Positions 13,990 through 40,339 of a DNA stretch of 64,000 nt are shown in pieces; positions within the stretch are counted from its first letter, which is position 1; each line of letters begins with the position of its first letter. The translations under genes and the position numbers were made by a program. The notes under the pieces are model-generated. The model ran no database searches and had not been told where the DNA came from. It saw nothing but the letters and a program-made list of their open reading frames with translations. The stretch is from contig ML992502.1 of the NCBI GenBank assembly GCA_010093995.1, positions 799,001 to 863,000 on the forward strand, given 5' to 3'. This DNA comes from Elsinoe ampelina. Taxonomy: Eukaryota.

Positions 13990-15016
13990 CCTAAAAGAGT
14001 AATAGTTATATAAGAAATTAACTTTAAGCTATAAAGGCTCTTTCTTCTCCTTTTCTAATTATACCTCTTTATTCTTCTCGTCTTTAATAAGCATTATAAG
14101 TAGTAAGCTAGTCTATCTACTTATAAGCTTATATCTTATACCTTTATCTAACTTAAGCTAGTACTCCGCTGTCTCTTTTAAGGCTAGTAAAGCCTTTACC
14201 TTTATTACTAATATAAGATAAGTAAACTCCTTAGTAAACTTAGTAGTTACTCGAGTAACTACTAAAGGCCTTTTAGCGATCTTATTTAACTTCTTTATTA
14301 TATTAAGGACAGCTTATATTATCTAGTTTACCTTATCTATCTTTTGTCTCTTATTTAGAATAGTTAAGCTTACTAGTATACCTATATATAAGAAGGTAAT
14401 AGAGGCTACTAGCGTAAAGAGTAGCTATATAAGGTAAGGGCTTAGAGATTAACTAAATTTTATAGGCCTATCTAACTCCTCTACTATCTATAGTACCTCT
14501 CTCTCTTTTTTCTTCTCCTCTATACTAACCTTAAGCATATTAGAAGAAGTAAGAGTATACTTGCTAGAGGCTATAACGTTACTCTAAAGCTCGTTACTAA
14601 GATTAAGCTACTTAAACTTATAGTATTTAAATTTTTAAGCGCCGGCGTAAGAGGCAAAATACTTCTCTATTATATAAGGCTTAGTACGTAGTATACTATT
14701 ACTGTCTATTATCTAACTAGACTAGTAGTAAAGCGTCTTATAATTCGACTAATTCCCCTTTAAAGCCCTATACTTATTATAAACCTTCTCTTCTATTATA
14801 TCGCTAGGTTCTATATGCCTTATTACTACTATAACAATTAGTATAGCCTACTAGAAGGTAATAGCCTTAAAGCTAGATTAAGCTTGTTTACTAGTAGCCT
14901 TCTCCCTTACTAAGAAACTAAGGAATATAGATACTATATTATTAGTCTAGCTACTATTAAATCGCTACGGCACTAGAGTTAATAATGCTATAGAGGTTAC
15001 TTAGAAGGCTAGCTAG
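13990..15016 (-). pseudogene. Harbinger Myb/SANT-like DNA-binding protein relic (5' end displaced to ~45284-45315 by the Gypsy insertion)
   Basis: De-RIPed WTDDMVSIFLGFLVREKAAGKQAQSGFKAVTFQ and later QSGW; convergent with the transposase as expected for Harbinger. Confidence 0.75.
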
Positions 15017-15203
15017 TGTTAAAGCTTTATATTAAAGCTATGTATATCGTAATATAGAGAACGCCTATCTAACTAAATAGTTCGTTAGTAGTAGAACTAA
15101 TTACTGTTAAGTCTAAAGTATAAGCGCTACATAAGATAAGTAGGTATATTACGTAAGCGGGACTAGCCGCTACTAAGTGCCGCCCTAATACTAGGCCCTT
15201 ATA
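15017..15203 (-). repeat. 3' LTR of the Gypsy element
   Basis: Direct repeat of 45092-45278; TG...CA termini (partly RIPed); adjacent PPT at ~15207-15218. Confidence 0.92.
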
Positions 15204-15641
15204 ATTGCCTCCTCCTCTAGGAGAGCTATTCTTAGCTCTTAACTAGAAGTGTATAACGTATAGTGTTATTCGGAGGTAATATAGGTATAAGGTAGTTAAG
15301 GCATTTTTATAAAGGCCTCGTATATATCTTATATAATGTCTAGTAGTAGTAGTCCTAGGGATCTAGTTTCTATAGAGGCGTTTATCTAGTTACTATAGTA
15401 CTAAAGCTAATTAGTAGCAACAATATTACTTTTCTTAGAATTTCTAGCGGTATTATAGGAGACACGCGCCTTGCGCTAGTAGCTATAACAAAGATATAGT
15501 GCACTAGAGGTTAGTTTATATAATTTTGTTATTTCTCCTTACGTTCTTCTTTTCTACCTAAAACATATCTATATTTTGTTAACCTTTTACTATATAAGTA
15601 TACTACCTACAACTATTATATTATTTAACTCTAGCCCCCCT

Positions 15642-16480
15642 ATAGCTAACACTTATAGCGTAAGGTTAGCTAGTGCCTAGGGAGCTATTACTGCTAGCGC
15701 TAACTCTATAACCCCCTTACTTTCTAAAGAGAAGGCTAATACCTATACTAGGTGCGCTAATAGCGTTACTAAGGGTAAGCTAATAGAGCTCTTATAAGGG
15801 ACATAACTAATTTATAGTAGGTTATATCTATACTAGAGACAACTTTAGTGTCTTCTTCTATTGTAAGTGTAAACACTATACCTATAGTAAGTATATATAC
15901 GAGCTGCTTCTATCTATCCTACGTAATACATACGTTAACGCTTTTAATATAGTTACTAAGCTTAAGGCCCCTAACTAGGCCGGCATTACTACGGCCGAGA
16001 AGTATATACGCGCTATAGCCTATAAGAACGTCCCTAAGGTTAAGAAGTTTAAGACTATACTTAAGGTATACTATACTAATAAGAATAAGGTCGTTAGTAA
16101 GGTCTCGACTCCTTATATAGAGCCTATAGGCGACTTACTTAGTAGTGTCACGCTTAAGCGTAAGAAGGTTAAGGAGCTATAGAAGATTAGGCGTAGCCTT
16201 TATAGCTTAATTACTATCGGTAAGGAGGTAAGTTAGACTATGCTCCTTATGTATTATAAACACGGCTAATAGGTTTAGATAGTGTATAACTCCGGTAGTT
16301 CTACTGCTAAAATTAACTATATTATAGCCGGTAGGTAGCTTATAGCCCCTATAGCACTCGTAGAGGAGAATCTTAGTATAGAGGTAAACGAAGAGAATAA
16401 TAAGGACAAGTAGGCATATATAAGCTAGGTGCGTATCCCTAGCACTATACCTATAATAAGGCCTTACGTAGAGTATAATA
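15642..16480 (+). pseudogene. RIPed small gene with Zn(II)2Cys6-like cysteine spacing
   Basis: De-RIPed C-x2-C-x9-C-x12-C-x2-C-x6-C across an intron (gtaagc at ~15775), followed by a helical charged region and a second intron (~16228-16271). Confidence 0.5.
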
Positions 16481-16860
16481 GAGTATAGAGTTTAGGTTAA
16501 TACCTATAATAGTAGCGTAAGCGTAGCGCTTTATTAAAATGTATTTCCCTAGATAAGGAGTCTACCCTTTACCCTATTTATGTATTTATATAATCTGTCT
16601 ACTTATATACTCTATAATCTACGCCTTTAGCAACCTTTCTTAGCTACTCTTAGCTACGACTTATATATAGTAATTAGCTCTCTTATATTTATATAATTCT
16701 CTTTAGGTTCCTAGCTATTAAACTCGATAGGCTAGTCCTTCTACTTTACTAAGTAGAATACCTTACCCTTCGTTACGAAAGTCCTAAGCGTAGGGAGTTA
16801 GAATATTAGGTTTCTCTATATTAAACTAAGTTTAACTACGTTAGGTCGCTACAAACGTAC

Positions 16861-16920
16861 TATACCTACCTAAATTTAGTTAAATATACTATACCTACCT
16901 AATTTTAGTTAAATATACTA
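16861..16920. repeat. Tandem duplication of a ~29-bp unit
   Basis: tacctacctaa(a/t)tttagttaaatatacta present twice. Confidence 0.8.
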
Positions 16921-16949
16921 TATATGCCTTAGATTAGACAAACGCTCTA

Positions 16950-17960
16950 CTTGCCGCGACTAGAATAGATATAGAAATCAATAAGCATCTTTCGGAGAGG
17001 GCTCTCTAAGCTAGTATTATTATAGATCTTATTCGCTAGATAGAGAGGAAGTATATACTCTATATTATCGAAGCTTAGTATAGAAGTACTTTTGCTATAA
17101 TAAGAAAGTAGATATTATACGCCTTGTTCTCTAGCTTATAACATAAAACTCTAAACTAATATATACTTATTCTAACTCTATTTTATCGTCTCTACTTAGT
17201 TGTCTATTAAGGTGTTAGATGTCTCTAAAGATAAGNNNNNNNNNNNNNNNNNNNNNNNNNNNNNNNNNNNNNNNNNNNNNNNNNNNNNNNNNNNNNNNNN
17301 NNNNNNNNNNNNNNNNNNNNNNNNNNNNNNNNNNNNNNNNNNNNNNNNNNNNNNNNNNNNNNNNNNNNNNNNNNNNNNNNNNNNNNNNNNNNNNNNNNNN
17401 NNNNNNNNNNNNNNNNNNNNNNNNNNNNNNNNNNNNNNNNNNNNNNNNNNNNNNNNNNNNNNNNNNNNNNNNNNNNNNNNNNNNNNNNNNNNNNNNNNNN
17501 NNNNNNNNNNNNNNNNNNNNNNNNNNNNNNNNNNNNNNNNNNNNNNNNNNNNNNNNNNNNNNNNNNNNNNNNNNNNNNNNNNNNNNNNNNNNNNNNNNNN
17601 NNNNNNNNNNNNNNNNNNNNNNNNNNNNNNNNNNNNNNNNNNNNNNNNNNNNNNNNNNNNNNNNNNNNNNNNNNNNNNNNNNNNNNNNNNNNNNNNNNNN
17701 NNNNNTAGTAGAGAAGTAAATACTCTTTCTAGGAAGTTTAAGATCTACCCTAACTACCTATCTATAAGGTTATTAGTAAGGAGGTAATTAGTAATAATAA
17801 AAGGCTTCTTTCGCTTCTTACTCTTCTCCTCTACCTTGCCGAGCTTAATACTAGTATAGCTATAGACACTAGCGAAGGTAGAGGTAGTACGCTTCTTGCC
17901 TTACTAGCTCTTAGTACTAGTTATAGTAGTTGTTAGAGAGGTAATAGAGGCAGTGTCTAG
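16950..17960 (-). pseudogene. BTB/POZ-domain gene relic spanning the assembly gap
   Basis: N-terminal part reads PF.V..LL...ISNFLERVFTS; C-terminal part reads ANKIYDNTGLESPLRKMLVDFYVY, resembling the IY..T...SPLR..LVD helix typical of fungal BTB proteins. Confidence 0.55.
17236..17705. other. Assembly gap (470 N)
   Basis: Run of N. Confidence 1.
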
Positions 17961-19329
17961 GTTAAGATCGTAGCACTTTATTGCTATATATTAAAGATAA
18001 AGTTACTCTAACGCGTACTAAGCTTCCGGTAATAACCTATAGTCGTAGCTATATATAAGTAACAGTAGTTATAGAGAGAGTAGTAGTAGTAGCTTCGGTT
18101 ATAGTATACCTTACTATAGTAGAGAGCAAGGAGAAAGGTATAGGGGAGAAAGAGAGTATTCCTCTCTTAGAGGTAAGTATAATAACACTTTTTTCTACTA
18201 TATTCTACTACTCTACTATTACTACTACTAAGTAGTAGTTGTAGTAATAGCGCATATAGGATAATCTAGTATATAATCTTATAGACAGGATTTGTTATAT
18301 ATATATTATACACTAATAATCTTATAAGGAAATACTTACGACCTACGTAGATATAGAGGAGGCTTTAGAGGACAAGGAAGAGGCTACTTGCTATACTAAA
18401 GAGTAGCTTCTTCCTTAACTTATTTCCCGTGTATAGTATATATATAGAGATTAACAAGAATGTTCCCTAGCGGGTCTTCTAAGCTAGTGTTATTATAGAT
18501 CTTGTCCGTTAGATAGAAAGGAATAAGTCCTTAGTAACTACTCTAGTAGTATCGAGTAGATCCCTACGATATAATAGCGAATAGAGCAAAGCACTATTAT
18601 CTATATCGGAGTCTTATTAGTAAACTTATTATAGAGAATAAACTTTCCTCTTAGACTACTAACTCCGTTAGTAAAACTAACCTAAAGATAACTTACTAAC
18701 CTAAGCCTTTTACTACTGTTACTAAATACTTAGGGTATGTCTTAAGTATCTTAAAGACTAACTTCTATAACGCCTCACTATAATTTTCTAAGCTATTATA
18801 ATTAGTAAAGGAATAGACTAACTCTTTAGCGTAAAAACTATATAAGGCACCTTAGGCTACGAACTCTATATAGTTTAGGGACTAACCTAATAATATATAG
18901 GTGTAAACTAACTAGTTAGAGTAATACCTACAGAAGTTATTATAACTTACCTACCTAACATAGTCTAGTAGTTAACCTAAGTGTACCTAAGTATTAGGCT
19001 ATTAACGTAAGAGACAATTATTCTAGCTATAAAAGGAGTACTCTAGCTTCGTTAATGCCTACTACACTTGCTAACTACGCCTAGGGATCTTAACCTCTCT
19101 CGTTTTAAAGCCTTAGCTAGGTAGAGCTATTTAAACTCCTATAACTTATTCTATAGCATGTTATATATATCAAAGTCGGCTATATTGTTAATGTATATCC
19201 GGCTATATAGCTTTGTTTTATCTACTAGCACGACGTAGATACTATAGTAGATTTATAAGGTAGAGTAGATACGCCTACTAGTAAGAGCGTTCCGTCTAGC
19301 TCGCGCGCGTCGATTTGTCTAAGGCTTAA

Positions 19330-22190
19330 TTAGTGTTATACTATGCTCTCGATTAGCTACTCTATCTAGCTAAGTAGGCTAATATAGATCTACTAGCGCT
19401 CCTATATAGCATAGGCGTTAATGCCGGCCCGATCTACTAGACTAGAAGCTATTCTCTATAGTTATTATAAATATAATATAAGCTAGTAACTTACCTTATA
19501 GGCTATTAGGTAATACTCCGTTAGTGCCTTTGTTATTCGTTGTCTATTCTTACACCTAGAGCTAGTCTTGCCTCTTATTACTATATATCCTTTGCTATTT
19601 AGTTATATACCGGATAAAGTCTTATTTGTCTATATTAGGATTATTAGGATTATAGTTAGATAGTTTCCTACACTTTAAAGAATAGTAGAACTTAACGCGG
19701 AGGTCGCTTACCTAGGAAGAATCTAGTTTAAGTCTGTCGGGATCTAGTTTAGCGTTAAACTAATTAGAGTATTTAGTTCTTAAGTTAGAGCCTATATTAG
19801 CTATACCTTAATAAGCCTCGCGGATAAACACCGCTATTACTTACTATAGCGATAGCCTAGGTAGCATATTAATAAGCGCCTCTAGTTCTCTTACTATACG
19901 CTATATAGCTCCTCTCTTAGCGCTAGGCTAGCCGAACTAAGAAGTAACGTTTACTATATCGCTTACGCTAACTAGCGTACTCTAGATCTTAATTAGTTTA
20001 GTAGCTAATAGCCTAACTAACTTCGAGGGGTTATTAAATACTACTAACATGTTTACTAGTTTAGTGTTATAAGTAGTAACCTAGTCTTTCTATCTAGCCT
20101 TTTTATTTGTAAGTTTAAAGGCGTCCTTAATAAAGTATATATAATTGTACTTTAAATAATTAGAATCGAGGCTAGTAACTACTTTAAAATTATAAATAGC
20201 CTTTAAAAAATGTATTATTAAGTGCTATTTTAGAAAGTTAAAGTCGCTCTCTTCTTTTCTATCGCTATAATAGGCCTAGAAGGTTTCTTTATACTTGTTT
20301 ATCCTAAAGAGCGCAAGGTTAATATACTAGAGTATGTCGTTGTTATAGGTCTTATAGTTTACTAGTAATATAAAGTCGACTAGTACGTATATAAACTTAA
20401 TAGCTTAAGGCGCCTTAACCTCCTTAAGTAGTAGTATAAATACTAGAAGCATCTAGCGTATAATACTCTTCTACTCTTAACCTGTCTATTACTTAATAGC
20501 CGAGTAGTGCGAGAAGTGTTAGATGCTAGGAAACACTAGTATACTATCGAAACGCTTGTTAATAATATTAAGTATAATCTTCTTTGCTAAGCGCTAGTAG
20601 CCTATTCGCTATATAGTCTCTTTAGCCTTTATATACCGTAGTAATCTCTATATAGGCATTAAATCCTAGAGCAATTTTTAAGTCTAGTGTAAGACATGTA
20701 TTAAAACGCCTTTAAGAAGTTAGTGTAGAATATCTAGTACTATTACGTAGTAAATATTAGTATATAAAAGATCCTACGCGAAGTAACTAACTATATAAAC
20801 CTAAGAGCTTATATCTATCTTCTTACTCTACTACTAACTCTTATATACTTCTCTCTATAAGCGCTATTATCGCTATATAGAGTAGTAAGTTTAGAATAGC
20901 GTAGTAACTACTAGGTCCTCCTTTTCCTCCTTGCCGATTAGGTAACTTATATAATAATATAGTAACTTTATACCGGTTATAGTAACCTATTCGGCGTAAT
21001 TCGTAGATATAGCGGCAAGTATAGGGAAGTACCTCCGCCTCTTTCTATCTATATAGAAGATTATTTTACTCTCTCTCGAGTAGTAATTAATAATAGTGTT
21101 AAAGATTTTCTTTATATAAGCGTAGTAGGTCTTCTCCTTAACGATATTACTACTATCTTTAATAATAGGAAGTAAGCTAATTAGTAACTACCTCGGCTAG
21201 TAGTTGCTATTATATGCTTCTACCTTTAGGTTGCCTAATAATAGATAGATAGCGTATGCTATAAGATCTCCTTAATAGTTTATTACCTAGGTCTAATTAC
21301 TTACGACGATTAATGGGATAATAGTAGCCCCTAGTATTTTAAGTCGCTTTTGTGTATTCTACTACTAGTTACTACTTGCTATTTCGGTATATACTTGTCG
21401 TAGTAGCTTACCCTCGACAGCTTCTATAAAGACTCTATATAGGCTATAGTCTATGTCTACTACAAAACTGTAATAGCTAAGCAAGAAGCGTATCGCTATA
21501 AGAATATCTAGATGCTAGAACATGTGTCTTTTAGGCCTACAATTAGTGTTTAGTATAAAGCTTAAGGTCTGCTAGCTATTAATGCCCTTGCTCGCATCTA
21601 AATTCTCTATCTTCTCTATTAGTTTATTTATAGTTCGCTAACTAAGGCTCTCTACTAGAGGTTATATACGTAGGTCTTTAAGCAATTACGTAATTATAGC
21701 TCTACTAAGTTTCTCCTTTATAAGCCACTAGGCAAGACCTACATCTATGCCGCTAATAAAGGCTTACTTTAGTTAAGTCTTGCCTAACTAATTATAATTT
21801 AGTTTATCGTTAGTGTTAGTATATATGTTATAGACTTAGAGAGATCTAGACAAGATTAGTCGACGTAAACTAAGAATAAACTATGTCTATAACTAACTCT
21901 TCGCTACTAGCTAGTATACTAGTAGCTATCTCGAACGTAGTACAATTAGATATAGCTCTACTAGATAAGGACAACCTCCTAGTACTCTACCCTATAGACA
22001 TACTACTAGTTGTACTTGCCGTAATTACTTACTCTTCCTTGTATGTGCTTTCTATTATAACCTTATCTATACTCTCCTCTTCCTCGTACATGTCGCTATT
22101 AAGCCTACTATTACTATTACTATCCGTTCTACGTGCTAGAGGTTAAGAGTTAAGGTTAGTAAAGAGACTAAGAGGATTATCTACTATGCT
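19330..22190 (-). pseudogene. Plavaka-family transposase relic
   Basis: De-RIPed AFISGIDVGLAQWL, DGKRRRCFPILAAMSADYAEQVTITG (~21050-20975), DILHQLLKGV (~20735-20705), FNFPKWHLM.HF. These match the DG..R..FP.LA...ADY.EQ, D.LHQL.KG and K.H...H motifs I recall for Plavaka. Confidence 0.8.
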
Positions 22191-22240
22191 ATACTATATA
22201 GTAGGTAAAGAGGGAAGGACACCCTCTACTAGCTATAGAC
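21826..22240. repeat. ~410-bp dispersed repeat (second copy 29080-29495): 5' part of the Plavaka ORF
   Basis: Near-identical sequence differing mainly by transitions. Confidence 0.95.
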
Positions 22241-25200
22241 TTTCGTTTCTACTCTAGTGTTTAGTTCAATTCTTAGTTACTATTATTTGTAGCGGAGTAA
22301 AGTAGACTAGCGAGTTATTCGGCATTAGCGAACTATGTCGTATATTACTAGTAATACTACCTCGTTAGCCTTTATTAGACAGTAAGCGCTCTCCCTTATT
22401 AAATAAGCAAGGATTATTACTAGCGTTATCTCTACGTAGATGTCTATTGCTATATTACTCTAGTAAGACTTACGCTATATTACTTATTAGTAGCTCTCTC
22501 CTCTAGTAATATAGTAGATGTTAGACAAGGCCTCTACTAGATTATATAATCTTTCTATAGGCTAGGTATTTACTAATTCGCCTTAGTATATCTATGTTTA
22601 TCGCTTAAGATCTAAATTTGTAGTTAGAGTTAGCTAGCTAAATTTTAGTAATAGTAGGAAGTAGAAAACGTTTAGATACTATATTATATTAGGTAACCTA
22701 AAAGATAGTTTAATATATATAGGGAACTAAATTAGTCTACTAAACTAAAGAATTGTATTTTTAGGTAATATAGTTAGACTATTATCTAGTAATCTTAATT
22801 ATTATCTATAATAATTGTGTTCTTCTTCGCTATAGCTTATTAAAGTTTCTAGATCTCTGCCCTCTACTTCTCTATTTCCTCGTAGATGACCTTCTATATT
22901 ATTAATAGTCTACCCTATCTACTATTAAGCTATTCTAGAGGCCTATAGAACGGAGCTATTAGCTTTATTATAAACGCCTCTATATAGTTAGCTTTCTAAG
23001 ACTTAATGTTTCTATAGACCTAAGCTAGATACTAAAGGACGAATTATAACACTAACGCTATATTAAGCAAGATTATAGTATTAAAGCGGTTTAGATTAAG
23101 ACTAGTCTTAATAGCTCTACTCTAGGCAATTAAGATCCTTAAGCCTTCTAGCCTATTAGGTTTAATAAATATATTATTAGATATAGCTATATCGACGATG
23201 TCTATATAGGTAAGTATAGATATTATTCTATAGTAGATAATAACTACATTAGTATCCTTATCGATCCTAATTACTTTACTATCTAGGTGCTTCTCGAGCT
23301 ATTTTAGATACTATACCCTTATTAGTAATAACCTAAATAGACTAAATAGACCGAACTAACTATTGTAGCGACTGCTAGCACTAATAGTGTAAATGCATAG
23401 ACGATTACTTACCTCTTTAGCTCCTTCGAATAGGAGATGTTCTACTTAATAATCTTAGAAATAACACTATAAAGAACCTTTATCTAAGGACTAGCATAGA
23501 TCTTGTCTATATACTACTATAGCGCTGTCTCCGAGAGGTTATATATAATTTTATAGGCAAACTTAATAGTAAAGTCGCTAAACTCTTCTACAACTATAGG
23601 ATTGTTCTAGAATATATCTATAAGAGTAAGGAATATAGAGAAAAGTAGTAGTAGCGTAACTAGGCTTAGTATTTGCTCCTTAGTCTTCTTATTAAGGATT
23701 GTCTCTAATGTTACTTTAGGCTTATCGGATTTGTCCTTTTACCTATTAATTGTCTCTTATATACTCTTATCTATATCCCGTTTAATCTTCTTCTATGTAT
23801 TTATAAGACTATAAAGATACTTGTCCTCGATAGTAATCTCTAGGTTAAAGGTAGAATATAGTAGAACTCTAATAGCTAGCAGACCGGGAGTAGTATCGAA
23901 AGGTTTCTAGATATAGTCTATGTTTATCTTAATAAGAATATTCGTAAGGATAGTACTCTATTTACTAACTGTTACTATAATCTCTTCTATAAACTATATA
24001 CTTCTCTTTTTATTAAACTTACTAGAGTCGTTGTTCGCTTTATACTATTTGTTAATTATAAAGGTATAGTCTAATACTATTTAGAAGTTAAGCTTGTTAG
24101 TAATAGCTTATTAAGTCTTATTTAGTATTATCTTTAGTGTTGCTTAATGTTTATTATTCTTAGCCTTAGTTAGCTTCTACTTAGATTTATAGATGTAGTT
24201 CTCGTTAAATTCTCCTATTCTACTTCTATTTATATCGAGCTTTTCTAATCTAAAGTCCTTATATATAGCCGCTATTAAGAACGCTACTACGTTTAAGCAC
24301 TTAACAAATAGTGTCCTACTTATACCTAGTATAAAAGGCCTCCCTAGTAGTATTCCTAGATAATACTAGGTCTACGTCTTCTAGCTAGTAACCTAATAGA
24401 ACTTATTAAAGATAATAGCGGCCTAGTTTATAGGCGTAGACCCTAGCTTTCTCTCTTATCCCTTAGAAATAAAGTTCTAATCCTTAGTATTTATATTGTT
24501 CTTACTAAGGAAGTAGTAGATTATAGTGTCGCGAGTAGTAAAGAAGAACTAATTATTTATCTATAAGGTCCAGGGGTGTTACTTATGTATATCGACTAGT
24601 TATAAGACTATAATAGTATTAATAGGCTTACTAGACTTATCTATCGGCTAAGACTTCTATTAGTAGTAGCCTATAGGTAGATTCTCTTTATAAATTAAAG
24701 TGTCTATGTTATATATGTCGCTATACTTGTCTTCTTATATAGCTTAGAATATTCTTCCCTAGTATAGAATAACCTTTATATTAGGTATAAACTTTTATAT
24801 CTTCTACGCCTACTATTTTATTACGTTTAATTCGCTAACAATTAGATTATAGCTAATAGTATCCGTAGAAGTAATATCTAGCTATAGCTTATTAACTAGT
24901 GTCTTTACCTTCTAGTACTTACTCTACTTGTCCTTAGGTATAGTAGTATAGTTAGTATCCTAGATAACCTTTTTATTTAAGTTCTAAATTAGTAAGAGAA
25001 AGAAGAGTCCTATCGAAGTCTTTCTAAATTCTATCTTATATATAAACATAAATACTAGGTAGCCTTCGAGGTATTTCTTAAGTATAATAAGCACTAAGTA
25101 TATCTATACTGCCTTAACTAGATACTTCTTATTCTAACTAAAATACTATATACTAGTATTTAGTAAGTAGATGTCTTTCTTAAAGCTTATAAAGTTATAG

Positions 25201-27705
25201 ACTCTCTCCTAGAACTCTTCGGACTAGTAATTGATTCTAGTGCCTATAGGGATAAAGCTTTAGTTAGCTAGATTATTACTAGTTTACTTAGCGTTGTTGT
25301 TATTTATAGTATAAAGTTTAACAAAGTTTAAGCTACTAAGAGTCTTATTAAATATATAAGTTACAAGCGCTAGGATAGGTATAGATAGTGTCTTAGGGAC
25401 TAATAGAATATAGTACCTTACTCGCTCCTTGCTAGGTATAATTATAAAGAGATACTAATTACTATCTTAGTATTGCTTATAGTATTTGTCTTCTATTACT
25501 CAAGTAGGATAATAGTTAATAGTAGTATTATCCTTGTTAGGTAGTAGAGAGCTAAGTTACTTCTTAGGGGTAGGTTTACGTAGTAGTAGGCGCTTAGCCG
25601 GAGATAGAGGGGCTAGAGGTTCCTCTTCCTCTTCCTCCTAGACTAGAGTTAATAGCTTTTAACTATTACAATACTAAAGAGAGTTAACTAAGTATATTAG
25701 TATATACCTAAGTTAAACTAAGTATTAAACTTATAAAGTACTTCTTTAGAGAGCTTCTTAACTAGATCTATACTAGGCATAAGATAGACGAAAATTATAT
25801 TACTCTCTTTAACTAGGGAGTTAATATAGTTAATTATAGCGGCACGTAGGTCGTAGTTGTCTAAGATAGGTAGAATGTTATATAGCTCTATATAATTTAT
25901 CTATATAAGAATAATGTTATTACTAACTAACTTCTTCTCCTTTAGGAATAGCCTAATATTGTTAAGACTATATATATTTAAATTATAATCCTCTAGATAT
26001 AACTTTAAAATTCTTAGACTAAACGCCTATAGACGATATAAATATCCTCTCTTTATAATTACGCCTAGGCTAATATCTAATTACTTAACAATTATAAAGT
26101 CGATAATAGTTTTATTAATAATGCTCTAGACTAGACGAGATATGTCCTCTAGCATTTGCTACTAACATATAGGCTAACTAGTGTAGTAATTAATATCTAT
26201 ACCTATAAGTCTACTACCGAGTATAGAAGTCTCTAATCTTTTAGAGAGTCCGCTATTAGACTAGGTAGCGGAGGAGCACTTTCTAATATACTTCTTAGAA
26301 TAAGCCTTCTTATCTACTTTAGTCTAATTCTTCTTATTCCTAAGCTCTTACGCCTTAATAGTAAGGACAAAATCTTTAATAACATTATAACTAGATATAT
26401 TATTATAGTTTCTAATATTCTTCTTAAACTAGTCTTAGTCTTAATAGTATAGTCTTTAAAAGAAGATCTTTATATAGTTATTCTAAGAGTATCGTAGAGA
26501 AGTTTTAATGTTATCTATAATCGTAGTTATATTAATATTACTATCCTAAGGTTCCTTATATTTAAGTCCTAGAACTATATAAGTATTCTTATATTCTTTC
26601 TACGCTCTTACGCGTACGGCGGCGTACTAGTTGTTGTTCTAGTTAAAGAATTTAAGGAAGAATCTCTTAATCTTAAGGTTTTTATTAAGCTATACTTAAA
26701 TTTCTATAGGAGGTCTTTTATAGAGCAGAATGTTATTAGTAGCTATACTAGCGCTATTAGGCTAATTCTTAGATATATTATATACGTCTATAAGCTTAGT
26801 ATATACTATAAATAAAGCTTAGAATAATATCTAGTAAATAGGTTAAGTAGGTATAGTAGATGTTAAAGAAGAGATTCTATAAAGGTGTTATATATTTATA
26901 AGTTTAAAAGAATTAAGGAGAGGATTTATTAACGTAGTAGATCTATATACTTTGTAATATATGCCTAACTAAGACTTAACTAAAGAGGAAATATTTAAGT
27001 AAAGAGCGCTTAAAAGAGAGATTAAAGAGGTTAAAGAAATACTAGAGAGCTATATAAGTTATTTATTTATATATAAGAGAGTATAAACAAAGGTAAACTA
27101 AAGCAATTAAGGAGAGAAGTAACCTAAATTTAGTTAACTTAGGTCGGGCCCTAAACTAAGTATATAGTAGTATACTAGATATAGTATATATATAATAGTA
27201 AATTACTTAGTTTAGATACTAAACTAAGAGTAACTATAGTCTATATACTTAGTTACCTTTTATTTTATATACTATATACACTAAGGATACTATTGTCGTA
27301 TTTAGGGTAGATCTTAAGGAATAATAGTCTAATAAATAGAGGGAATATAGTAGTAGTTAATATAAAATAATTAAACAATATTTTAATAGCGAAACTAGTA
27401 TTCGTATATAAAGGACAATAGTAATAGAACATAAATAGAAGGTAGTTAGTAGCCTATAGCGGAATAAAGGGCATAGTATATATAGCGTATAGTATAGCTT
27501 ATAGATACTAGTAAAGGAACAAAGAAAGTAATATACTACTATCTAATTATTTAGACTTTATAATTGCTATATATAGAATTAAGTAGTAGAGTAGAGTAAA
27601 GGCTATATATTCCGCAGAACGGGCAGTTAATAGTATATTCTATATAATTATAAATGCACTTTATTCCTCGCCTAGCTCTACTAGGAAGGTAATAGCGAGA
27701 GAGGA

Positions 27706-28476
27706 CACTACTAGTATAGCTTCGCCTATAACGCTCTCTATAGTAAGCTACTATCTAGTAGAAGGTAATAGATATATCTTTACCCGCGATATTCCTCTAT
27801 CTCTTCCTCTTTGTTATACTAGTTATTCCTCCGTAATTCTCCCCTTAATATCCTTATACTATAAGGTAAGTAATCCCCGGTAAATACTAGCTTCTCTACT
27901 CTCTTTACGTACACTAGAACCTCTAGTAGCGCTATCTATAAGATCGAGAGATACTTCGTAATAGATTTACTTAGTTATAGCTACTAGGTAGAGACAGTAG
28001 CTAGTCCTACTAATAATACATAGCTAGTATAAAGGAAGCTATAGAGAGTAGTAGTAGCGGGGAGAGAGAAAGAGGTGTCGAAGTCTCCTTATACACCCTT
28101 AAGCCTATAGCGGCATAGTAGGTAAGATAGAGAGGTATACTATAATAGATTTACTCCGGCATAACTACTAGGTACTAGTAGTAGTTAATTCTATAAACAC
28201 GACATAGCTAGTGTAAAGGATGCTATTAGAAGTAGTAGCGACAGCGAGGTAGGAGTAAATATTAGAGTCGCTATTATATATATAGTAATAGATAATTATA
28301 GTGTACTAGGTAGGGGATCTACTATAATAGATAGCTAGCTATTATTAAGGTCGGATAGAGAGGAGAGAAAAGGTTATACTAGGGACACTAACACCTATAT
28401 TTAGGTTAGTATAAGTAGAGAGCGTAAACTAAGGCGTTATAGTAAATTATATCTACAATGTAGTTATGTCGCTATA
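27706..28476. repeat. ~770-bp dispersed repeat (second copy 34785-35556): right-terminal region of the two sister elements
   Basis: Colinear, near-identical, mostly transition differences; both copies are followed within ~16 bp by TATAACA. Confidence 0.95.
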
Positions 28477-28657
28477 AACAGAGTTTATAACACATTTATA
28501 AAGCTATAAAGATTGTAAGTCTCTAAACATATAATACTTAACTTTAGAGAAGAACACAATTAGATAGCATTATATAATCGAGTTCCGAGGAGTGCTTAAT
28601 CTAGTTAGGTTAAAATTTTAGGTCATCTTTAAACTTTAAGAGAGAGAACTAAGAAAT

Positions 28658-31600
28658 TGTTAGTTCGACGTAATAAACTACTAGCTGTCCCCTGCCGGCC
28701 GCCCTCTACTACTACTATATATAATATGCTAGAGATAGAGTAAAGTAACAATTTACACTACTAAATTTAAGCTAAGTAAGCTTCCTACTAGTAAACACTA
28801 TTTTGCTATTAGTTAGACTACTATAGCCTTTACGTGTGCAACTTAGATATATCTTTAGTACCCTTACATAGGTAGAAGAAGATTTATTAGAACATTATAT
28901 AGGGGCTAGTAGTCCGTAGTAAGTATATCCTACTAGAAGGCGCTTCTCTACTACGACGACCTAACTCGAATTAAAATTATCTATCTAAGTTAGTAGCTTG
29001 CCTTTTATTAAACGTTAGAGCGCCGAGCTAAGGGTCCCTAGCTAAGCTATATCTTGTTAATTGCTCGAGACAAAGGATATATTATAGACTTAGAGAGATC
29101 TAGACAAGATTAGTTAACGTAAACTAAGAATAAACTATATCTATTACTAACTCCTTACTACTAGCTAGTATACTAGTTACTATCTCGAACGTAGTATAAT
29201 TAGATATAGCTCTACTAGATAAGGACAACCTCCTAGTACTCTACCCTATAGATGTGCTACTAGTTATACTTGCTGTAATTACTTACTCTTTCTCGTATAT
29301 GCCTTCTATTATAACCTTGTCTATACTCTCCTCTTCCTTATGTACGTTACTATCGAGCCTACTATTACTATTACTGTCTATTCTACGTACTAGAGGTCGA
29401 GAGTCGAGGTTAGTAAAGAGACTAAGAGGATTATCTACTATGCTATACTATATAGTAGGTAAAGGGGGAAGGACACCCTACGCTAGCTATAGGCTATTAT
29501 TTTTACCTCGTTACATAGTTTAGTTCTTATTTACTATAATTCGTAGTAGAGCTAATAGAACTAAGCTATTGTATAGCGTCGGCGGACTAAAGCTAAAATT
29601 GTATCTACGCTATAGTACTAGACACGTTAAGACAGAGTTTACTCTAATACATCTAGGTAATAGAGTTTGTTAGCCGTCTCTTACTTAAGAACGATATTAA
29701 ATGCTATACTTAATTATTAGCTATTATTACGCTATTATCCTTAGTAGAGGCTTTTATAGTAATTGTAAAACAGGGAGTGCTACGTAGGTATAATAATTTT
29801 AGCTAGTAAACGATTTATAGCTCTTACTATCTTATGTCTTAACTTGTTACTAGTATTATAATAAGTTAGTTATAAATAGCCTCTACGAAAAAATAGCAAT
29901 AGTAGTATATAAAGATGCCTCGGCTATATAACGTTAGGTCGTTTATACCTGTAGTTAATCTATTAGAGGTAGTTAATTAGTTTACTAAACTATAAAACTA
30001 GCGCTTTTTAGGTGAAAATTGCAAGCGTTCCCTTAACTAATCTTAACAAGGATAAATTAATAATTTGCTATTACTCCTCTATTAGTTTAAACAACTACGC
30101 TTTTAGTTTGTTCGCTTTACTATATTGTCTTATATAACCTTCTATATTATTGTCGGTATATTATAGCTATAGTTAACTTACTTCTTTAGCTAATAGGATA
30201 GTATAGTTAGCTTAAGCGTAAATGCTATTATTACATCTATACTAGCGAATGTTATATTCTCTAAGGCACTATTAGAAGCCTACTATAATAATTAGATCTA
30301 TATACTAACTTTGTGTTAAGCGAAGTTACACTATTAAGGCAGAAGTACTAGTACTCTACTTGTTATAGAACTATACGCTATTCCTAGTTATAAACTAACT
30401 AGTATAGCCTTCTCGAAGTAAGTTTACTTTAATATAGCTACCTTAATAATGCCTATATAGCTTACTATAGACTTCTCTCTATAATCGATAATAACGACTT
30501 TAGTGCCCTTACTAATCCTAATAGCTCGGCTATTCGGAATTCTCTTAAGTCATCGTAGATATAGCTCTCTTATTAGTAACAACCGAACTAGACTAACTAA
30601 GTTAAACTAACTACCGTGGCTACCGCTAGCGCTATAGAGTTATACGCACGAATAATCCCTCGCTACCTCTTAGTCTTCTAACTATAGGCTTTCTATTCTA
30701 TAATCTCGGGGATAATAATATAAAGGCTCTATATTCCTAATCTAGCGTAGCACTAGCTATATACTTGTCTACTGCTTTAGCTCGAGGTATAAAGTCTAAG
30801 GAGTGTCTATAGCCCCTACTATAATATTAGTTAATGTTATTACTCTTCCTATACTAGCAAGGCGGCGGAGTAAATAAAGTAAGCTCGTAATAATATCTAG
30901 TATAATTACCTCTAGGTTCCTTTTGCTTGTTAAATATAGATATTATTCTATGCTACTCTCTCCTATATAGCGTCTTTATAATTGTAGTTAAGGTATACTC
31001 CCCTATACGCGAAGCAATTTATGTATATAGTGCTACTAAAGAAATAAGATATCTGTCCTCGATTAAAACTTTAAAGTTCTAGTTAGGAATATCTTAAACC
31101 TAATAAGACATAAAAGTAGGCGTAGCTACTAGATGTTTTATAATTAGGTTAAGATACATGTTAAGAGAAATAAATAGAAGTCTAGCTATTAATATAGGGA
31201 CTAATATAAAGATTTTAAACTAGAAATAAGAAGTAACTATTATATTTACGAAAAGGGAGCTATAATAGGCTTTAACTATTCTTACGTTACTTTTGTATAA
31301 GTAGAGAGCTACTTCTTATTATATTATATAGCAATATTAAGTTAAATCGTGTCTAGTTTATTCTCTCTTATTCTTTGTAATAGGTACGTCTTTGCCGCCT
31401 ATAGATAGAGACTAGCTCTACTATATCGAAGCTACCTTCGTTAAGTAGTAGGTATCTAATTCCTTTCTCTCGGTATAATCGACCTTATATTAAATGTTAA
31501 GCTTAATACTAAACCTACATATGTAGTCGGTAGAGCTATACTAATGCTAAGTAGCAATTGTCTAACGAGGAGAGGCATAAGATAGCTAGGCGTTATAGCG

Positions 31601-34600
31601 TTCCCTTAAAGGACTTATCTACCCTAATATAAAATAAGTTTATTTCTAGTTTTAGGCTAACTAAACTAACTTAAGTTTGTACTTAGTTAGGAGGCGTAAC
31701 CTAACCTAAAGCATCTCTGCCATTTATTAGGAGGTAGTAGCTAGAACTAATAATAGTTAGTAGAAATTCTTTATTAACTTCTAAGTATACTACATATAAA
31801 CCTCGCTAGTATATAAGAGTAAAGCCTAATAACTATATTAGTAGTAACGCCTATATGCTCCTTTATAGCACTATACTATTCTTATTTAATTTAGTTAACT
31901 CTAAGTTCGGCATAGAACTAAAACTTATACTATTACTTCTACTATAATAGGGGACAAGATTCTATTCCGCTAACTTGTTTCGCTTATTATTAAATGCCCT
32001 AGTCTATTATATCTATAGTAGTATTACTTCGTTTCTATTGTTAATAATATTAAGAACATATTACTTTTTTAATACCAATATTAATCTTGTATTAGTAGAA
32101 GTAAGTTATTATCTTCTCGGACTTACTCTCTTTACTCTAATACGTTATAGCGTACTAGGCAGGCTATAGGAAGTTACTAGTAATAAAGTGAAACTTAGGA
32201 GAGGTATTAGAGAGCTCTAAGAAATTATATTTATCTAGATAGATAGCCGGCCTTAGGTGTATAGTAGCTTATATAATATTCTTTAAGCTATTAAAGCAGT
32301 AGGAACATAGATAGTACCTCGGCGATATATACTATAGTCTAAATAGGCTATGTTTTTCTAGCGGAGGAGAAGGAGCTATATTCTTCTAAAACTATATAAA
32401 GTAAGACTATACTCTAAACTAAGTTACTAGGTTGGTTAAAATCTGTCTAGCTATAGTTATAGAACTATCGAGTAAGTTTACTTCTAATAACAATAATAGA
32501 AATTACAGGATTTATAGGGGCTATAGCCTCTTAGAGGTAAAACAAGCTAAATAAAACTTTATTAGTTAAGAACTAAACAGTTTCGTAAATAACATAATAG
32601 CAAATAAAACATAGTAGTATTACCGCTCTTACCTTTAGCAGTTTAGTTACTATCGTAGGTATTAAATGTCTTATATTATAATATTCTTTTTCTGCTAATC
32701 TTCTTTACGCTTCTTATTAGTGTTAATATCTATAAAGTAAAGCTTCTTAGGAGTAAGAAATACTTCTAAGTTCTCTTCTATAGTAGCCTCGGCTATAGGA
32801 AGTAGTTGCTAGCTACTATAATATTAATAAGAGTTGTCTATAAGTGTTAGTATATATAGATAAATAGAGAAGAGATAAACTTACTTTATATAAAGTCGAG
32901 AAGATCTTTAATAGATACTATAGAAGAAGTAAAATAGAGAAAGATCTCGTAGGTACTAGAGATAAGAGTTATAACATGCTTAGTAATAGTAGCGTCTAGA
33001 TCGAAAGAGTCTTTAATAGTAAAGACTTATACGGAGTTATACGCGTTAAGCTAGTAGAGTTAGAGGTAATTACCTCTAATATTAAGGATTTACCTAAGCT
33101 TACTAATGTAGTAATTAACGTAACGATTCTTGTCCTTACTAGTACTAGGCTTTCTTAAGTTATAGACGCGAATATTCTTTCTTAATATTAGATACGGAAT
33201 AGTGTCTACTTTAATAACCTCTATAATCTAGATCGTAGCGAATTTAATGTTAATCTAGACACGATTAGACGCTAGCCCCTAGTTAAAGCCGAACATTCTA
33301 TAATAAGGCTATATATATAAATTTAATCTCTTATTACCTGTCTTTACACGAGTTATATATCTCTCTAAGGATAGTATTCTTACTTAGGAGAGCATTAGTG
33401 TCTATACGGACGAGGCAGCTAAAGGATATAGACTCTAGATGCCTCCTTTACCTAGTAATGTTATTCTTTCCCTTTTAACCGATAAGAGATTTGCCCTTAT
33501 TAATTATATAGTATTTCGGAATAATTGCTATATAGCTTTTATCTTATCGATATTAACTACGGTCTATAAGTTCTCCTTAAACTAGTCTAGATCTTTCTAA
33601 TCTAGTTAGTTAATAAAGAGCTAGAAATTGTTAGGTGTGCTATTTAGTAGCCTAGTTTCAATTTTAAGATATGCTTTAAGCACCTTAGAATTACGTAACT
33701 CGCTTCTATTTTGTTTCTTAATTTTAATATTAGATTCCGTAAAGACTTTTAAGATTGTTTCCTTTATCTTTATAAACGTAGTAGAGTATTACTAGTTATT
33801 CTAATTAAAGAAGAATTAAATAGATTTCTTACTAATATTGTTATTATAAAGCATATTCTTAATAAGAGCTAGCGTAAGGTTATTAAGTAGAATCTTTTTT
33901 ATAGGTTTAGTAGTAACCTTTAGCTTCTTTATCTTTAGTAGTATAGTGCTATTATATGTATTTAATAAGTGTAAGAATGTCTACTAGTAAAGGCGTTATA
34001 TAAGGTAAGTAAGATTAGAAAGATTAAGATTATATAGCTAGGAACTAAGCGTAGTAAGTTAAGCGCTATAGAGTAAATAGTAGCAATTATAAATACCTAC
34101 TACCTAGTATAATGTTAAAATGCTATACGGAAAGTAGGTAGTAACTTCTTAAATATAATAAAATTTGTATTTAAGATAGTATACTAAAGTAAGTAGTATA
34201 CTTATAACTAAGATCTAGTTTAAGCCTCGACCTAAAAGTGAACTAGGTTAACTAAGTCTATGTTTCGCACGTGCTAATAGTAACATATAATAATTACTAA
34301 TATTAGGTCGATACTAGAACTAAAAGTAAATAAGTTAGTTTACTACTAATAAATATTATAGAGTATAAATTAAGTAAGTAAACAAAACGTAGCTATCGAA
34401 GAATATTATAAGTACTAATTATTGTAGAAAATTAGTATTAAAGTAATTAACTATACTAAACACTTATATATTAGTGCTATATACAAAGTTATATATACTT
34501 CAAATAGCTAATAGACTATTTAACAAAGAGTATTATTATGTAAAGCAATAACCTTAATGTCTTTATAGTAGACAGAAGACAAGATAAATAATAAGAAATA

Positions 34601-35572
34601 AAGAAAGATATATAGTATACTTATATATATTAGATAAGGAGATTTTATTTACTAGTTAGAGGAGAGAGATTAAAGCGATAGGTATATAATCTATATAGAA
34701 AGAAGTATATTACTAACGTAAGAAAGTTATAATAAAGTACTACTAATAACAAAACCCTGCTATAAAAGCAATTATAAAAGAGAATACTACTAGTATAGCT
34801 TCGCCTATAACGCTCTCTATAGTAAGCTACTATCTAGTAGGAGGTAGTAGATATATCTTTGCCTACGATATGCCTCTATCTCTTTCCCTTTGTTATACTA
34901 GTTATTCCTTTATAATTCTTCCCTTAATATTCTTATACTATAAGGTAGGTAATTCCTAGTAGACGCTAGCTTCTCTACTCTCTTTACGTACGCTAGAACC
35001 TCTAGTAGCGCTATCTATAAGATCGAGAGATGCTCCGCGATAGATTCGCTTAGTTATAGCTACTAGGTAGAGATAGTAGCTAATCCTACTAATGATACAT
35101 AGCTAGTATAAAGGAAGCTATAGAGGGTAGTAGTAGCGGGGAGAGAGAAAGAGGTATCGGAGTCTCCTTATACACCCTTAAGCCTATAGTAGCGTAGTAG
35201 GCAAGATAGAGAGGTATACTATAATAGATTTACTCCGGCGTAACTACTAGGTACTAGTAGTAGTTAATTCTATAAACACGACGTAGCTAGTATAGAGAAT
35301 GCTATTAGAAGTAGTAGTAATAGTAAGGCAGAAGTAAATATTAGAGTTACTATAGTATATATAACAATTAATAATTATAGTATACTAGGCACGGGAATCT
35401 ACTATAATAGATAGCTAGCTATTATTAAGGTCGAATAGAGAGAAGAGAAAAGGTTATACTAGGGACACTAACGCCTACGTTTAGGTCGGTATAAGTAGAA
35501 AGTACAAACTAAGGCGTTATTATAAATCGTATTTGTAATATAGTTATATCGCTATATAATAAGCATATAACA
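28658..35572 (-). mobile_element. Non-autonomous sister of the Plavaka-type element (left end 28658 or 29080)
   Basis: Shares the transposase 5' block and the right-terminal block; 30540-30690 is a diverged paralogue of 23290-23435; the catalytic part of the transposase is absent. Confidence 0.6.
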
Positions 35573-35799
35573 AAACTAAGAGAAGATAAAGTTTAGCGCG
35601 TTAAACTTTATAGTTCTACGAGTGTTAGTTTAGGCTAACTAATTATAACTAAGTATAATTCCGGTATGCCCCTCTTATAAGTAAACTAAGATCTAAGGCT
35701 TATCTATCGCGAGTAACACTTACACCGAATTAATACCTATACTGCTACTCTTCTACCTCTATCTCCTCTACTCTCTCTTCTCCCCTCCGTAGCTATACC

Positions 35800-38700
35800 T
35801 ATATCTACTTCTTATTAACTAGTAATATACTTAATCGAAGCTATTAAGTAAGCCCTTACCCTTAACAATAAAGGCTATAGAGACTTATATAGTCTCTTAG
35901 AGAATATTATAATAGGTAAAGGTATAGTTAGAAGAATATTTAGATCAATTTCTAATAGGAGAAGGTTAGAGAAGGAGGTACTTCTAGTAGCACTAGACAG
36001 TAATAACATTTAGTATACGTTTTAGCGTACAATAGAGCTCTTAGAGAGTAGCAATAGTTAAGCTACCTTCTATACTCTTGTCTATAAGATAAGTACCAAT
36101 TTTAGACGTTAGTAGGTATAGTTATACTTAAGATTATACAAGCCTAGAGGAGTATAGAATAGTACTAATACGCTTACCTTAAATAAATCCTTAGATTACT
36201 AATTACAATTATAAGTGCCTTTGCTCTCTAATCGACTAGACGATATACTATTAGTAGTTCGTAAGGATAGAGAGATATGTTCTATCTACTTAATTAGAGA
36301 TCTTCTACTTACACGTTATAAAGCTATAATTACTATATCTAAGAAGGATATAGATATTAAGTTCAATTAGCTAAGAGTAATATCAATTATAACGGACTAC
36401 TATATATATAATAAGTAAAGCAATGTTATAGGTTAGAAGGACAATAGAACGCTATATTTCGCTACAATAGAGAATACTATCTAGTTTAAGACTATTATCT
36501 TGTCTAAGATATTACATAGTTTACCTCTTTATATCCTAATAAGGCAATAAGATTAAGGAAAGCATCTAGCCGAAGCAAGTATAAAGGAGAATAGTCCGGT
36601 AGTAGACTAAGTCGAACTAAAAAGTAGTAGAGTAATCTACGCTAAGCCGTACCTACTACTAAACCTTAGAGTTTTAGTTCGTTTACTACGCTTTATCCTT
36701 CCTTGCCTTTTAACTAAATTGCCCTTTAGAATTACTTATCTATTCTTCTACTATTAATCTATCGGGTCTATTAGTATCTTTCGGCTAGGCTCCTAAGTAT
36801 AGATATTAATTGCACTAACCTTGTTTCTCTAGCGGCTAATATCTAGACTATAGAATTAAGTATATAGGCTTCTCTTATCTATTTAGGTATTAAAGCATAG
36901 TCTTCTAACAGTCTCCCTAACTAGCTAGAGGCTTAAATTAGAAGCTCTCTACTATATACGTATAGAGAAGAGTATAATTATATTAGTAGCTAGCAAAAGT
37001 AATATAGGACCTAGTAGCCTAAATAGCTTAATAGATAGTAACTCCTAGAGGAAGACATTGCACTTGTTTAGTAGGAAGTAGGCTAATTACAATTAATAGT
37101 AGAGAAGAACGTAAGCTTAATTAGACAACTCTAGCGAGAGAATAATATACTTAGAGAGTACATTAGTAAAGCTTTTTACGCGTTTAGCGTCGCCTCTATA
37201 GACCTTACTAGTAGAGTATTAAGGGGCTTATTTAAATTAAATAAGGGTATATAACGCTATACTAATAGTGCTACTCTACTATTACTATATATAGTTACTA
37301 ATAGCTAATTAACGCCTGCTCTCTATTGTAATATAATTAGTAGAAGATAAGCTACTCTATCTAGCATGTCTAATTCGGACACTCTAGACGGCGAGATAGT
37401 AAGCAATTAATACTTTTAGCACTTAGAAGATATACTACTCGGCAAAGGGGGGACTACTAATGTAATTAATAAGGGAGCTACTATATAAATTATACTACCT
37501 ATCTATATATATAATAGCTAGTTCCTATAGTCTTTCGAATTAGTATATAATTGCTTAGTCTAAGTTTAATCTATAATTTCTCTCTATGTATTTCTACTCT
37601 AATTGTTGCTTAACCTAATAACAAATACTATATTTAGTTTAAGTATTTAGTCTAAGTAAGTTTAAGTAGCTTTCTTTTTTAGTTTAGCTTCTAGCGATTA
37701 GCACTCCGCAAGTTAGACCTAGCTACAAGTCTAATTTAATACTCTTACTAGTTAAGATTACCTTAGGGTATAGGTAGATATAACTAATTCTAATTAGAAG
37801 AAAGTTATGCACTTTAAACACCTAACTAAGCTATTATCTAACTTAAACTAACGCTAAGTTACTACAACGTATATAAGATAACTATCTATCCCCTTTATAG
37901 TATATATTATTCCGGCTTACCTTACTAACTCTCTTATACCTATATATCTCTTTATTAGAACTATTATAAACTAAGATGTCTTAGGCACGTTAGCGCCTAC
38001 ATAGCTTAGACTATAAGACTAATAAGTATTCCGAAGATAATAATTTAAGTTATTTTAACTAGGATAAAGCAGAGTAAGGCTTTAGTATTAAGGGAGACTA
38101 AGCTAACTATATAGGCTATAAATACAATATTAAAGACAAAGAAGAAGGTATAAATTAGACATTACTACTCTTAATCTAAGTTTAAGAGAGCTATAACCTA
38201 ACAAGAATAGCCTAATATTAGCCTCTATGCTAGTTAAGATAGTAAAGCAGAGGCAATAGAACGTACTAAACTAGTATCTCGACATTTTCGAGGTAGTGTA
38301 TAATAATCTACGTATAAGTATAGCTATCGGAGTAGATTATAATACAATATTACTAATATTAGACAATTAATAGCTACTCCTATAGATTATATAGTACTAG
38401 CGCTTAGTCCGTAACTAGCTACTAGTACTTTATCTATAGAGGACTATAGGCAAATACCCTTCTATAGTTATAGCTAGTAAGGTAAGTTACGTAGCTAAAG
38501 CTAATTACTTATTAATATACATATAGCTTCGAGAGGCGCTCTACTATAGTTATAATAACATTATACAAATAGTAAGCGAGATACTCTACTACGAATAGCT
38601 AGCTAAGGGGCTAGAGGATAGCGAGCTACCGAATTAGGCACGTAGGCTACTAGAGGAAAGAAAGTACTAATATAAGGATGGCAATTTAGTACGCGCTAGA

Positions 38701-40150: not shown

Positions 40151-40339
40151 TACGCTATCTACTATTAGACTATCTCTATTTACTATGTATTAAGGGTTTT
40201 TAGATTTCTATAGGGAAAAACTATATTACTTCTAAGTAGGACCTAGAGGTAACTAGGGGATTGTATTAAACTAAGTTAAACTAAGTTAGTTACTTAGAAG
40301 TAGTCTAACGTAGCTCCCTAGCGTTAGGGATTTTATAAC

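Follow-up and report, generated by a model that had tools for sequence, protein, structure and literature searches.

The closest described relatives of the element analysed here are Plavaka transposons. The survey of Kojima (2025; PMC12730594) describes PlavakaA and PlavakaB with their termini and target-site duplications (TSDs). According to this source, Plavaka is reported from Agaricomycotina, the ends are CA..TG "in most cases" across the clade, CATCA..TGATG in PlavakaB and TGT..ACA in PlavakaA, and a PlavakaB consensus reaches up to 24,396 bp (PlavakaB-1_GyCo, supplement). The red-algal Plavaka elements of Bostrychia (bioRxiv 10.1101/2025.02.11.637652) are described as 17.4-19.1 kb long, with internal tandem repeats and a conserved accessory cassette, whose genes are suggested to influence chromatin or DNA marks. 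The Tuber Plavaka (PMC12581995) has an ascomycete host, a 2-bp TSD and terminal inverted repeats (TIRs). Sly1-1 of Neurospora crassa (PMC4592977) is a large (11.5 kb) TIR element of the CMC superfamily with an accessory gene and relics mutated by repeat-induced point mutation (RIP), in an ascomycete where RIP is active. The locus compared with these systems is a stretch of 64,000 nucleotides from Elsinoe ampelina (assembly GCA_010093995.1, 28.3 Mb; contig ML992502.1, positions 799,001 to 863,000, here C2:799001-863000), called the window below. With a probability of roughly 0.8, the window holds a 23.6-kb cut-and-paste Plavaka element, killed by RIP, with an SNF2-type ATPase as a probably functional accessory.

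The window element resembles PlavakaB in its Plavaka transposase, short TIRs, 2-bp TSD and large size. Moreover, PlavakaB-1_AuSu starts with CATCACGAAAA, in which nine of ten bases are as in the window element (PMC12730594). In contrast, PlavakaB is described with CATCA...TGATG ends and TET/JBP cargo, whereas the ends here are CGTCA...TGACG in the least-mutated copies and the cargo is an SNF2 ATPase plus other open reading frames (ORFs). The Bostrychia elements belong to a different kingdom, and their accessory genes PAG1-3 (unknown; adenine methylase with SET; ParB-like with 2OG oxygenase) are not SNF2. The Tuber Plavaka differs in its end motif 5'-CATAC; the word "SNF2" is absent from the main text of PMC12581995, and its passage on this element describes no cargo. 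Sly1-1 is half the size and is not called Plavaka, and its accessory gene is of unknown function and divergently transcribed in homologues (PMC4592977).

Giant Plavaka elements that carry cargo and have well-described ends are thus already known from mushrooms, truffle and red algae. A preliminary description of this locus had suggested an under-described family, a view overtaken by the full-length structures in PMC12730594, PMC12581995 and bioRxiv 2025.02.11.637652. No literature report of either SNF2 cargo in Plavaka or CG...CG Plavaka ends was found, with Repbase and subscription journals lying outside the search. The one paper that pairs "Plavaka" with "SNF2" uses the latter for host gene families. 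The family name TuBo in the Kojima survey presumably stands for Tuber borchii. The main text of PMC12730594 does not contain "SNF2"; an unannotated SNF2 gene may be present among its supplementary sequences.

The borders of the element were obtained from copy alignments. All 13 fetched copies of subfamily 1 align beyond 18293, up to 17706, where an assembly gap of 470 N (about 17236-17705) lies inside the window element, and copies extend past 28492 to about 40340. Further flanks placed the alignment borders at about 16771 and 40340, and the same borders were found in four subfamily-2 copies. The element begins and ends with CGTCACGAAA...TTTCGTGACG, and its TIRs of 17-27 bp read CGTCACGAAA. 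In the least-mutated copies, the end words CGTCACGAAATCCCTAAG and CGTCACGAAATCCCTAAC form a 17-bp perfect inverted repeat. A 2-bp TSD (TT, TA, GA, CT, AG or AC) was present in 15 of the 15 copies with both ends seen, the chance match of the outer two bases being about 0.10 for a single pair. Two other copies (C2:2445701, C11:708412) had no recoverable right end, and two (C4, C8) were traced leftwards only. In the window, the element interrupts a Gypsy retroelement. The empty site is found in L071 and L094, where window position 16770 is joined to 40341 with a single TT. Boundaries, TSD and dispersal of the element are thus directly observed.

The element belongs to the Plavaka lineage (CMCT/EnSpm-related). 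PF18759 matches the window at 20690-21550 on the minus strand with 89.9 bits against a cut-off of 26.3, confirming the Plavaka-type transposase of the preliminary description, and the frame contains 17 TAG and 4 TAA stops. Intact relatives score 212-248 bits, and tblastn with the intact ORF of the metagenome locus L103 covers 21760-19148 (E 2e-95). Genome-wide, PF18759 matches 28 places (22 in subfamily 1, 4 in subfamily 2 and 2 in a third subfamily), all above the cut-off and each with 14-20 TAG stops. Of 7999 candidates searched with a five-copy profile, 7 proteins reached E <= 1e-10; identity is 30-38% for six of these, and the relatives align along the whole transposase of about 830 residues. 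The nearest named transposase is that of Polychaeton citri, at 38% identity, which together with RIP indicates a filamentous ascomycete as host. The D, D and E of the catalytic triad, presumed from family knowledge and aligned to conserved acidic residues of the relatives, are kept in 4, 5 and 9 of 18 aligned copies, and the remaining residues are the G-to-A products N, N and K. In the stretch from the second D to the E, where the family has C(2)C and H(3-4)H motifs, the cysteines of the C(2)C motif are present in 2 and 10 of the 18 copies. Intact relatives have HxNIH, in which the counted copies have Y at the second H position, and the H of DILH is kept in 3 of 18. Judged by eye against the ORF that lies upstream of the transposase in L103, the region 21823-22335 probably belongs to the transposase gene, as its 5' exon or upstream part; its repeat is 88% identical, with 8 transversions in 471 bp.

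The element lies in an AT-rich, RIP-mutated block from about 12.5 to about 45.5 kb of the window, with a GC content of about 0.30. The composite RIP index is 1.1-2.0 across this block versus negative values in the genic flanks, and values of about 1.5-1.9 attest heavy RIP. Compared with the window, 22 subfamily-1 tracks differ by transitions at 7.4-9.5% and by transversions at 0.03-0.17%. Many transitions with so few transversions fit a recent burst followed by RIP, and all assembled copies have been killed by RIP. A stop-codon consensus across copies gave no reading frames and was uninformative because the RIP stops are common to the copies.

The relic at about 22.7-25.6 kb, directly upstream of the transposase, is assigned to the SNF2 ATPase family through its homologues and not by a direct Pfam match. 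A metagenome scan gave 48 Plavaka loci, of which L103 and L104 were closest to the intact query. In both, a helicase ORF lies upstream of, and in the same orientation as, the transposase; L103:3-632 is above the Helicase_C cut-off, and L104 shows weak SNF2/ResIII/Helicase_C matches. The L103 fragment led to the proteins P0008 (95%) and P0009 (62%), which score above the PF00176 cut-off with 38.7 and 34.5 bits. The PDB matches of their profile are Ino80-, ISWI-, HELLS- and Chd1-type ATPases (E 1e-7 to 1e-2), with no close subfamily. A homologue profile built from three sequences scores 29.6 bits in the window at 23430-25151 and 68 bits in the least-mutated copy (hmmsearch; reversed controls 0), and pairwise comparison with single relatives is weak (E 0.006, 0.013 and 0.0006). 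Across copies, the SNF2 order of Walker A, DExH, motif III and motif VI is found. The Walker A/B residues are retained in the homologues, L057 has GFGKT as Walker A, the D, E and H of the Walker B box are kept in 3, 2 and 2 of 18 copies, the glycine of SGT in 8 of 18, and the motif VI arginines partly. The SNF2 relic is kept in all three subfamilies of this genome, and in the third the same two-exon relic stands upstream of its transposase with 180-186 bits. The multi-gene transposon proposed in the preliminary description is upheld in that accessory cargo accompanies the transposase in three subfamilies and two metagenome contigs, even though the ends of the copy alignments (16771/40340) fall elsewhere than it had placed them.

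Several results weigh against this account of the element. Pfam found nothing directly in the accessory frames of the window, and a genome search with PF00176 gave no match in any element copy. A full HMMER scan with the RIP-mutated profile A5 and a homologue search with the L104 ATPase protein both gave 0 hits, and the SNF2 call consequently rests on the three-sequence bridge. The pairing of ATPase and transposase was seen in just 2 of the 48 metagenome loci, the others being short or more distant, and in L110 and L116 a superfamily 1 (SF1) helicase occupies that position instead. The contigs of L103 and L104 are too short to place the ATPase within their TIRs, and no intact copy of the element was seen in the Elsinoe ampelina assembly.

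The interior of the element is duplicated. The segments 21823-28492 (module A) and 29077-35572 (module B) are paralogous, and module B is inside every long copy fetched. Their outer ends show 88-89% identity and 8 transversions apiece (471 and 794 bp; 1-2% transversions), and at the protein level the SNF2 and ORF-2 paralogues of the interior share about 30% identity. The module ends (27700-28492/34779-35572 and 21823-22292/29077-29546) are more alike than the interiors or than the subfamilies, and this homogeneity suggests recent recombination between modules. Transversions between subfamily 2 and the window amount to 4.1-4.2% in module A and 7.2-7.4% in module B. The SNF2 relic of module B extends further upstream in subfamily 2 (A5 55-59 bits), and the ORF-2 profile gives 23.8 and 14.6 bits in L058, with similar results in L056 and L060. 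Full copies are 23.6-24.3 kb long, one subfamily-2 copy is 16,560 bp, and the third subfamily is 21,649 bp. The latter is located at C4:898626-920274 and C2:~2124000-2135000, is about 66% identical in the transposase, and has CG ends, a TT duplication (C4 copy, 21.6 kb) and the SNF2 relic, with no detected ORF 2. A weak second SNF2 signal (5-7 bits) lies about 6.5 kb upstream in a third-subfamily copy. The 790-bp repeat shared by the modules contains a subunit of about 150-200 bp in about three copies (window 27940-28240; L058:700-1250).

The terminal dinucleotide separates the element from the described groups. Among 34 ends, the first bases are CG in 30, CA in 3 and TA in 1. Within the element, CA and TG occur at 0.25-0.27 of expectation and CG at 0.98. 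Since CA and TG are depleted and CG is not, and an original CA would mostly have become TA, CG was more likely the original dinucleotide. The terminal word CATCA..TGATG of PlavakaB is missed by one mismatch, and the element thus behaves like PlavakaB and departs from its terminal definition by a single base. A broader scenario can be put forward only tentatively. RIP-active ascomycetes may harbour a giant Plavaka lineage with its own SNF2 remodeller as counter-silencing or transposition factor, whose ends shifted from the clade-wide CA...TG to CG...CG. As CA...TG is the prime RIP target, CG...CG ends would outlast RIP in such a lineage, and mutated copies might stay movable in trans.

DDE transposases act by cut-and-paste chemistry. 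In the proposed mechanism, the transposase would recognise the short terminal repeats, excise the element and reinsert it via a 2-bp staggered cut. The element spread in at least two bursts (subfamilies 1 and 2; the third 21.6-kb subfamily) before its death by RIP. Its cargo is ORF 2 and, immediately upstream of the transposase, a divergent ATPase of the SNF2 family, and an old tandem duplication produced the second, diverged SNF2/ORF2 module. The ATPase may be a DNA translocase that opens or remodels chromatin on the element or its target for transcription or transposition, and would fill the slot of TET/JBP in mushroom PlavakaB and of methylase/SET in red-algal Plavaka. A working accessory acting on chromatin is slightly favoured.

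The mobile unit could be drawn differently. The preliminary description had placed a transposon of about 10 kb with TGTTA...TAACA ends at 18293 and 28492, near-matching 4-bp flanks (GATT/CATT) and a separate sister element; read in this way, it would be a 10-kb element with TGT...ACA (PlavakaA-like) ends plus the sister, possibly an old nested relic. The transposase does fall between 18293 and 28492, the internal repeat homology ends at 28492, and in less-mutated copies 18293 carries TGTCG(C/T)A, with (A/G)CGACA at 28492 and about 35570, words that resemble the PlavakaA ends TGTCGG/TGTCGC (PMC12730594, supplement). However, no stand-alone 10-kb copy was found among the 15 of 23 long hits traced leftwards, the outer CG ends are the ones used by all three subfamilies, and the flanks of 18293 and 28492 are not duplicated (TT versus CA/CG). 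The match covers just 5-7 bp, and such words are common; inside the element TGTTA occurs 57 times and TAACA 35 times. The TGT..ACA words at 18293 and 28492 are internal, unlike PlavakaA ends, and GATT/CATT is internal sequence common to the copies; a TSD of 4 bp is rejected. Because 28492 and about 35572 are the stop points of the internal 790-bp repeat pair, the sister is part of the same element. The 10-kb unit is refuted as a mobile unit by copies that run through both points, and the reading as a whole is highly improbable.

The 23.6-kb Plavaka element still leaves the role of its SNF2 gene to be weighed. A passively captured passenger (Pack-type cargo) with no part in the life of the element is unlikely. 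The diverged, perhaps truncated second SNF2 copy of module B implies that the element tolerates junk, and the neighbours differ at other Plavaka loci (SF1 helicase, DUF6532). Nevertheless, neither the place nor the orientation of the gene changes across three subfamilies and two contigs, although the transposases of these contigs are only about 36% identical to that of the window, and homologues of the gene keep the Walker A/B residues. It is also far from the host SNF2 genes: the homologues score 35-39 bits on PF00176, and 24 of 31 host hits exceed 100 bits. It is rather doubtful, too, that the ATPase acts on DNA in transposition itself (synapsis of ends 24 kb apart, disassembly of the transpososome or donor-site repair) and not on chromatin silencing. 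No chromatin-reader domain is recognised in this bare ATPase, its look-alikes in the Atlas are viral SNF2 clusters plus a basidiomycete cluster, and its gene is tightly coupled to the transposase gene. Against such a role, no gene of this kind is reported for most of the described Plavaka families ("SNF2" being absent from the main text of PMC12730594), which argues that it is not generally needed, and the cargo of other Plavaka elements is epigenetic.

Genes that modify chromatin or DNA are recurrent cargo of Plavaka elements, namely TET/JBP in mushrooms and methylase/SET in red algae. A conserved SNF2 ATPase, if true, would extend this to a third kind of cargo, a motor, and would make it possible to test whether a eukaryotic transposon brings its own remodeller against RIP and heterochromatin. 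By estimate, about 28 copies of up to 24 kb make up at most about 0.6 Mb, or about 2% of the assembly. Annotation of such AT-rich element blocks would split them into several false families, as happened at first with this locus. The coordinates of all features are collected in the table.

Table. Features of the Plavaka element and its host retroelement in the window (positions are those of the window)
Feature	Position	Strand	Basis or remark
Whole Plavaka element	16771..40340	-	23,570 bp; genes on minus strand; copy alignments start and stop here in both main subfamilies
Left terminal inverted repeat	16771..16797	+	Window reads CGTTACGAAAGTCC..., least-mutated copies CGTCACGAAATCCCTAAG...
Right terminal inverted repeat	40314..40340	-	Subfamily 2: first 17 bp identical to left end
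Target-site duplication, left copy (TT)	16769..16770	+	
Target-site duplication, right copy (TT)	40341..40342	+	
Plavaka DDE transposase, main exon, RIP-inactivated	19148..21760	-	PF18759, tblastn and alignment with intact relatives
Probable 5' exon or upstream part of transposase gene	21823..22335	-	Repeated at 29077-29589
SNF2-type ATPase, C-terminal exon (helicase motifs V-VI)	22750..23328	-	hhalign A4 vs A6, E 6.7e-5, probability 63.6
Main exon of the SNF2-type ATPase, with relics of Walker A, Walker B and motif III	23334..25634	-	hhalign A5 vs A6, probability 97.8, E 1e-12
Accessory ORF 2, relic of about 350+ aa	25763..26830	-	Frame conserved across copies
Internal repeat, module A copy (earlier "right end", probably the "BTB" region)	27700..28492		89% identical to 34779-35572, 8 transversions in 794 bp
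Tandem unit of about 100 bp, copy number varying between copies	28602..28701		TRF: 3.0 copies in L068 (period 100)
Module B, a diverged tandem copy of module A that lacks the transposase body (earlier "sister")	29077..35572	-	Homologies in same order: 29077-29546, 30432-30634, 34779-35572
Second, paralogous SNF2 C-terminal relic	30112..30755	-	A4 profile 41.4 bits, A5 8.6 bits (window); reversed controls 0
Paralogue of accessory ORF 2	32900..33900	-	Projected from copy L058; undetected in the window copy itself
Right-hand region of about 4.7 kb	35573..40313		76-78% identity between subfamilies; no identified gene
Host Gypsy long terminal repeat retroelement, right part	40341..45299	-	Reverse transcriptase (RT), RNase H and integrase relics; outside the transposon
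Host Gypsy element, left part	15016..16770	-	Adjoins 40341 in uninterrupted copies L071 and L094

Of the co-oriented accessory relics noticed earlier, those at about 22.7-25.6 kb and 25.76-26.83 kb have stood, the former as the SNF2-type ATPase. The latter, ORF 2, has no Pfam match, its profile matches are confined to these elements, and neither the third subfamily nor a set of 1407 metagenome ORFs yielded a counterpart. For 27710-28270 no ORF identity was found, and no gene was identified in 27700-28492. The BTB fragment that had been suspected received no support: 0 of 58 genome hits of PF00651 fall in an element copy, Pfam on both strands of the least-mutated copy was blank, and 387 ORFs from 8 host BTB loci gave no meaningful tblastn match, although RIP makes this absence a weak negative. 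Six-frame Pfam on 3.5 kb of the right-hand region in L090, the least-mutated copy, was also blank. No TET/JBP dioxygenase was hit by Pfam in the scanned frames, with about 30-35.5 kb and parts of 17-19 kb outside the scan and RIP hiding SNF2 from Pfam as well. A genome search with PF13087 for an SF1 helicase gave no match in element copies. In tblastn of the 1407 metagenome ORFs, the transposase and the host Gypsy were matched, with no credible match to other cargo. The RT/RNase H/integrase ORFs match the host Gypsy at window 40793-43402, and its direct repeat is 15019-15203/45094-45278.

Some further observations concern other Plavaka loci and the surroundings of the element. In L110 and L116, whose Plavaka transposases are more distant, an intact SF1 (AAA_11/AAA_12) helicase ORF (L110:1471-4353, L116:5525-8407) lies upstream of the transposase in the same orientation, and DUF6532 ORFs flank other Plavaka transposases (L107, L111). 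The host genome has tandem BTB-gene clusters at C12:371000-399000, C9:180000-186000, C9:905000-911000, C6:1258000-1280000 and C1:2745000-2769000. In the window, an intact NB-ARC and DUF7779 (NLR-like) gene lies at 8681-10036 on the minus strand, about 2.5 kb from the repeat block. Another RIP-mutated repeat is found left of the Gypsy element at 12990-13700; by eye, its frame is presumably that of a Harbinger/PIF-type transposase. Close to the left end of the transposon, all copies examined contain an internal repeat of 103 bp (77%), in the window at 16948-17050 and 18421-18523. The same Gypsy family was struck by the transposon at differing positions in the window, L071, L085, L093/L094 and L077/L078. 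At C10:288987-336583 (L071, L072, L085), a full element with its own AG duplication sits inverted within another element's right TIR, and the nested pair forms a tail-to-tail block of about 47.6 kb.

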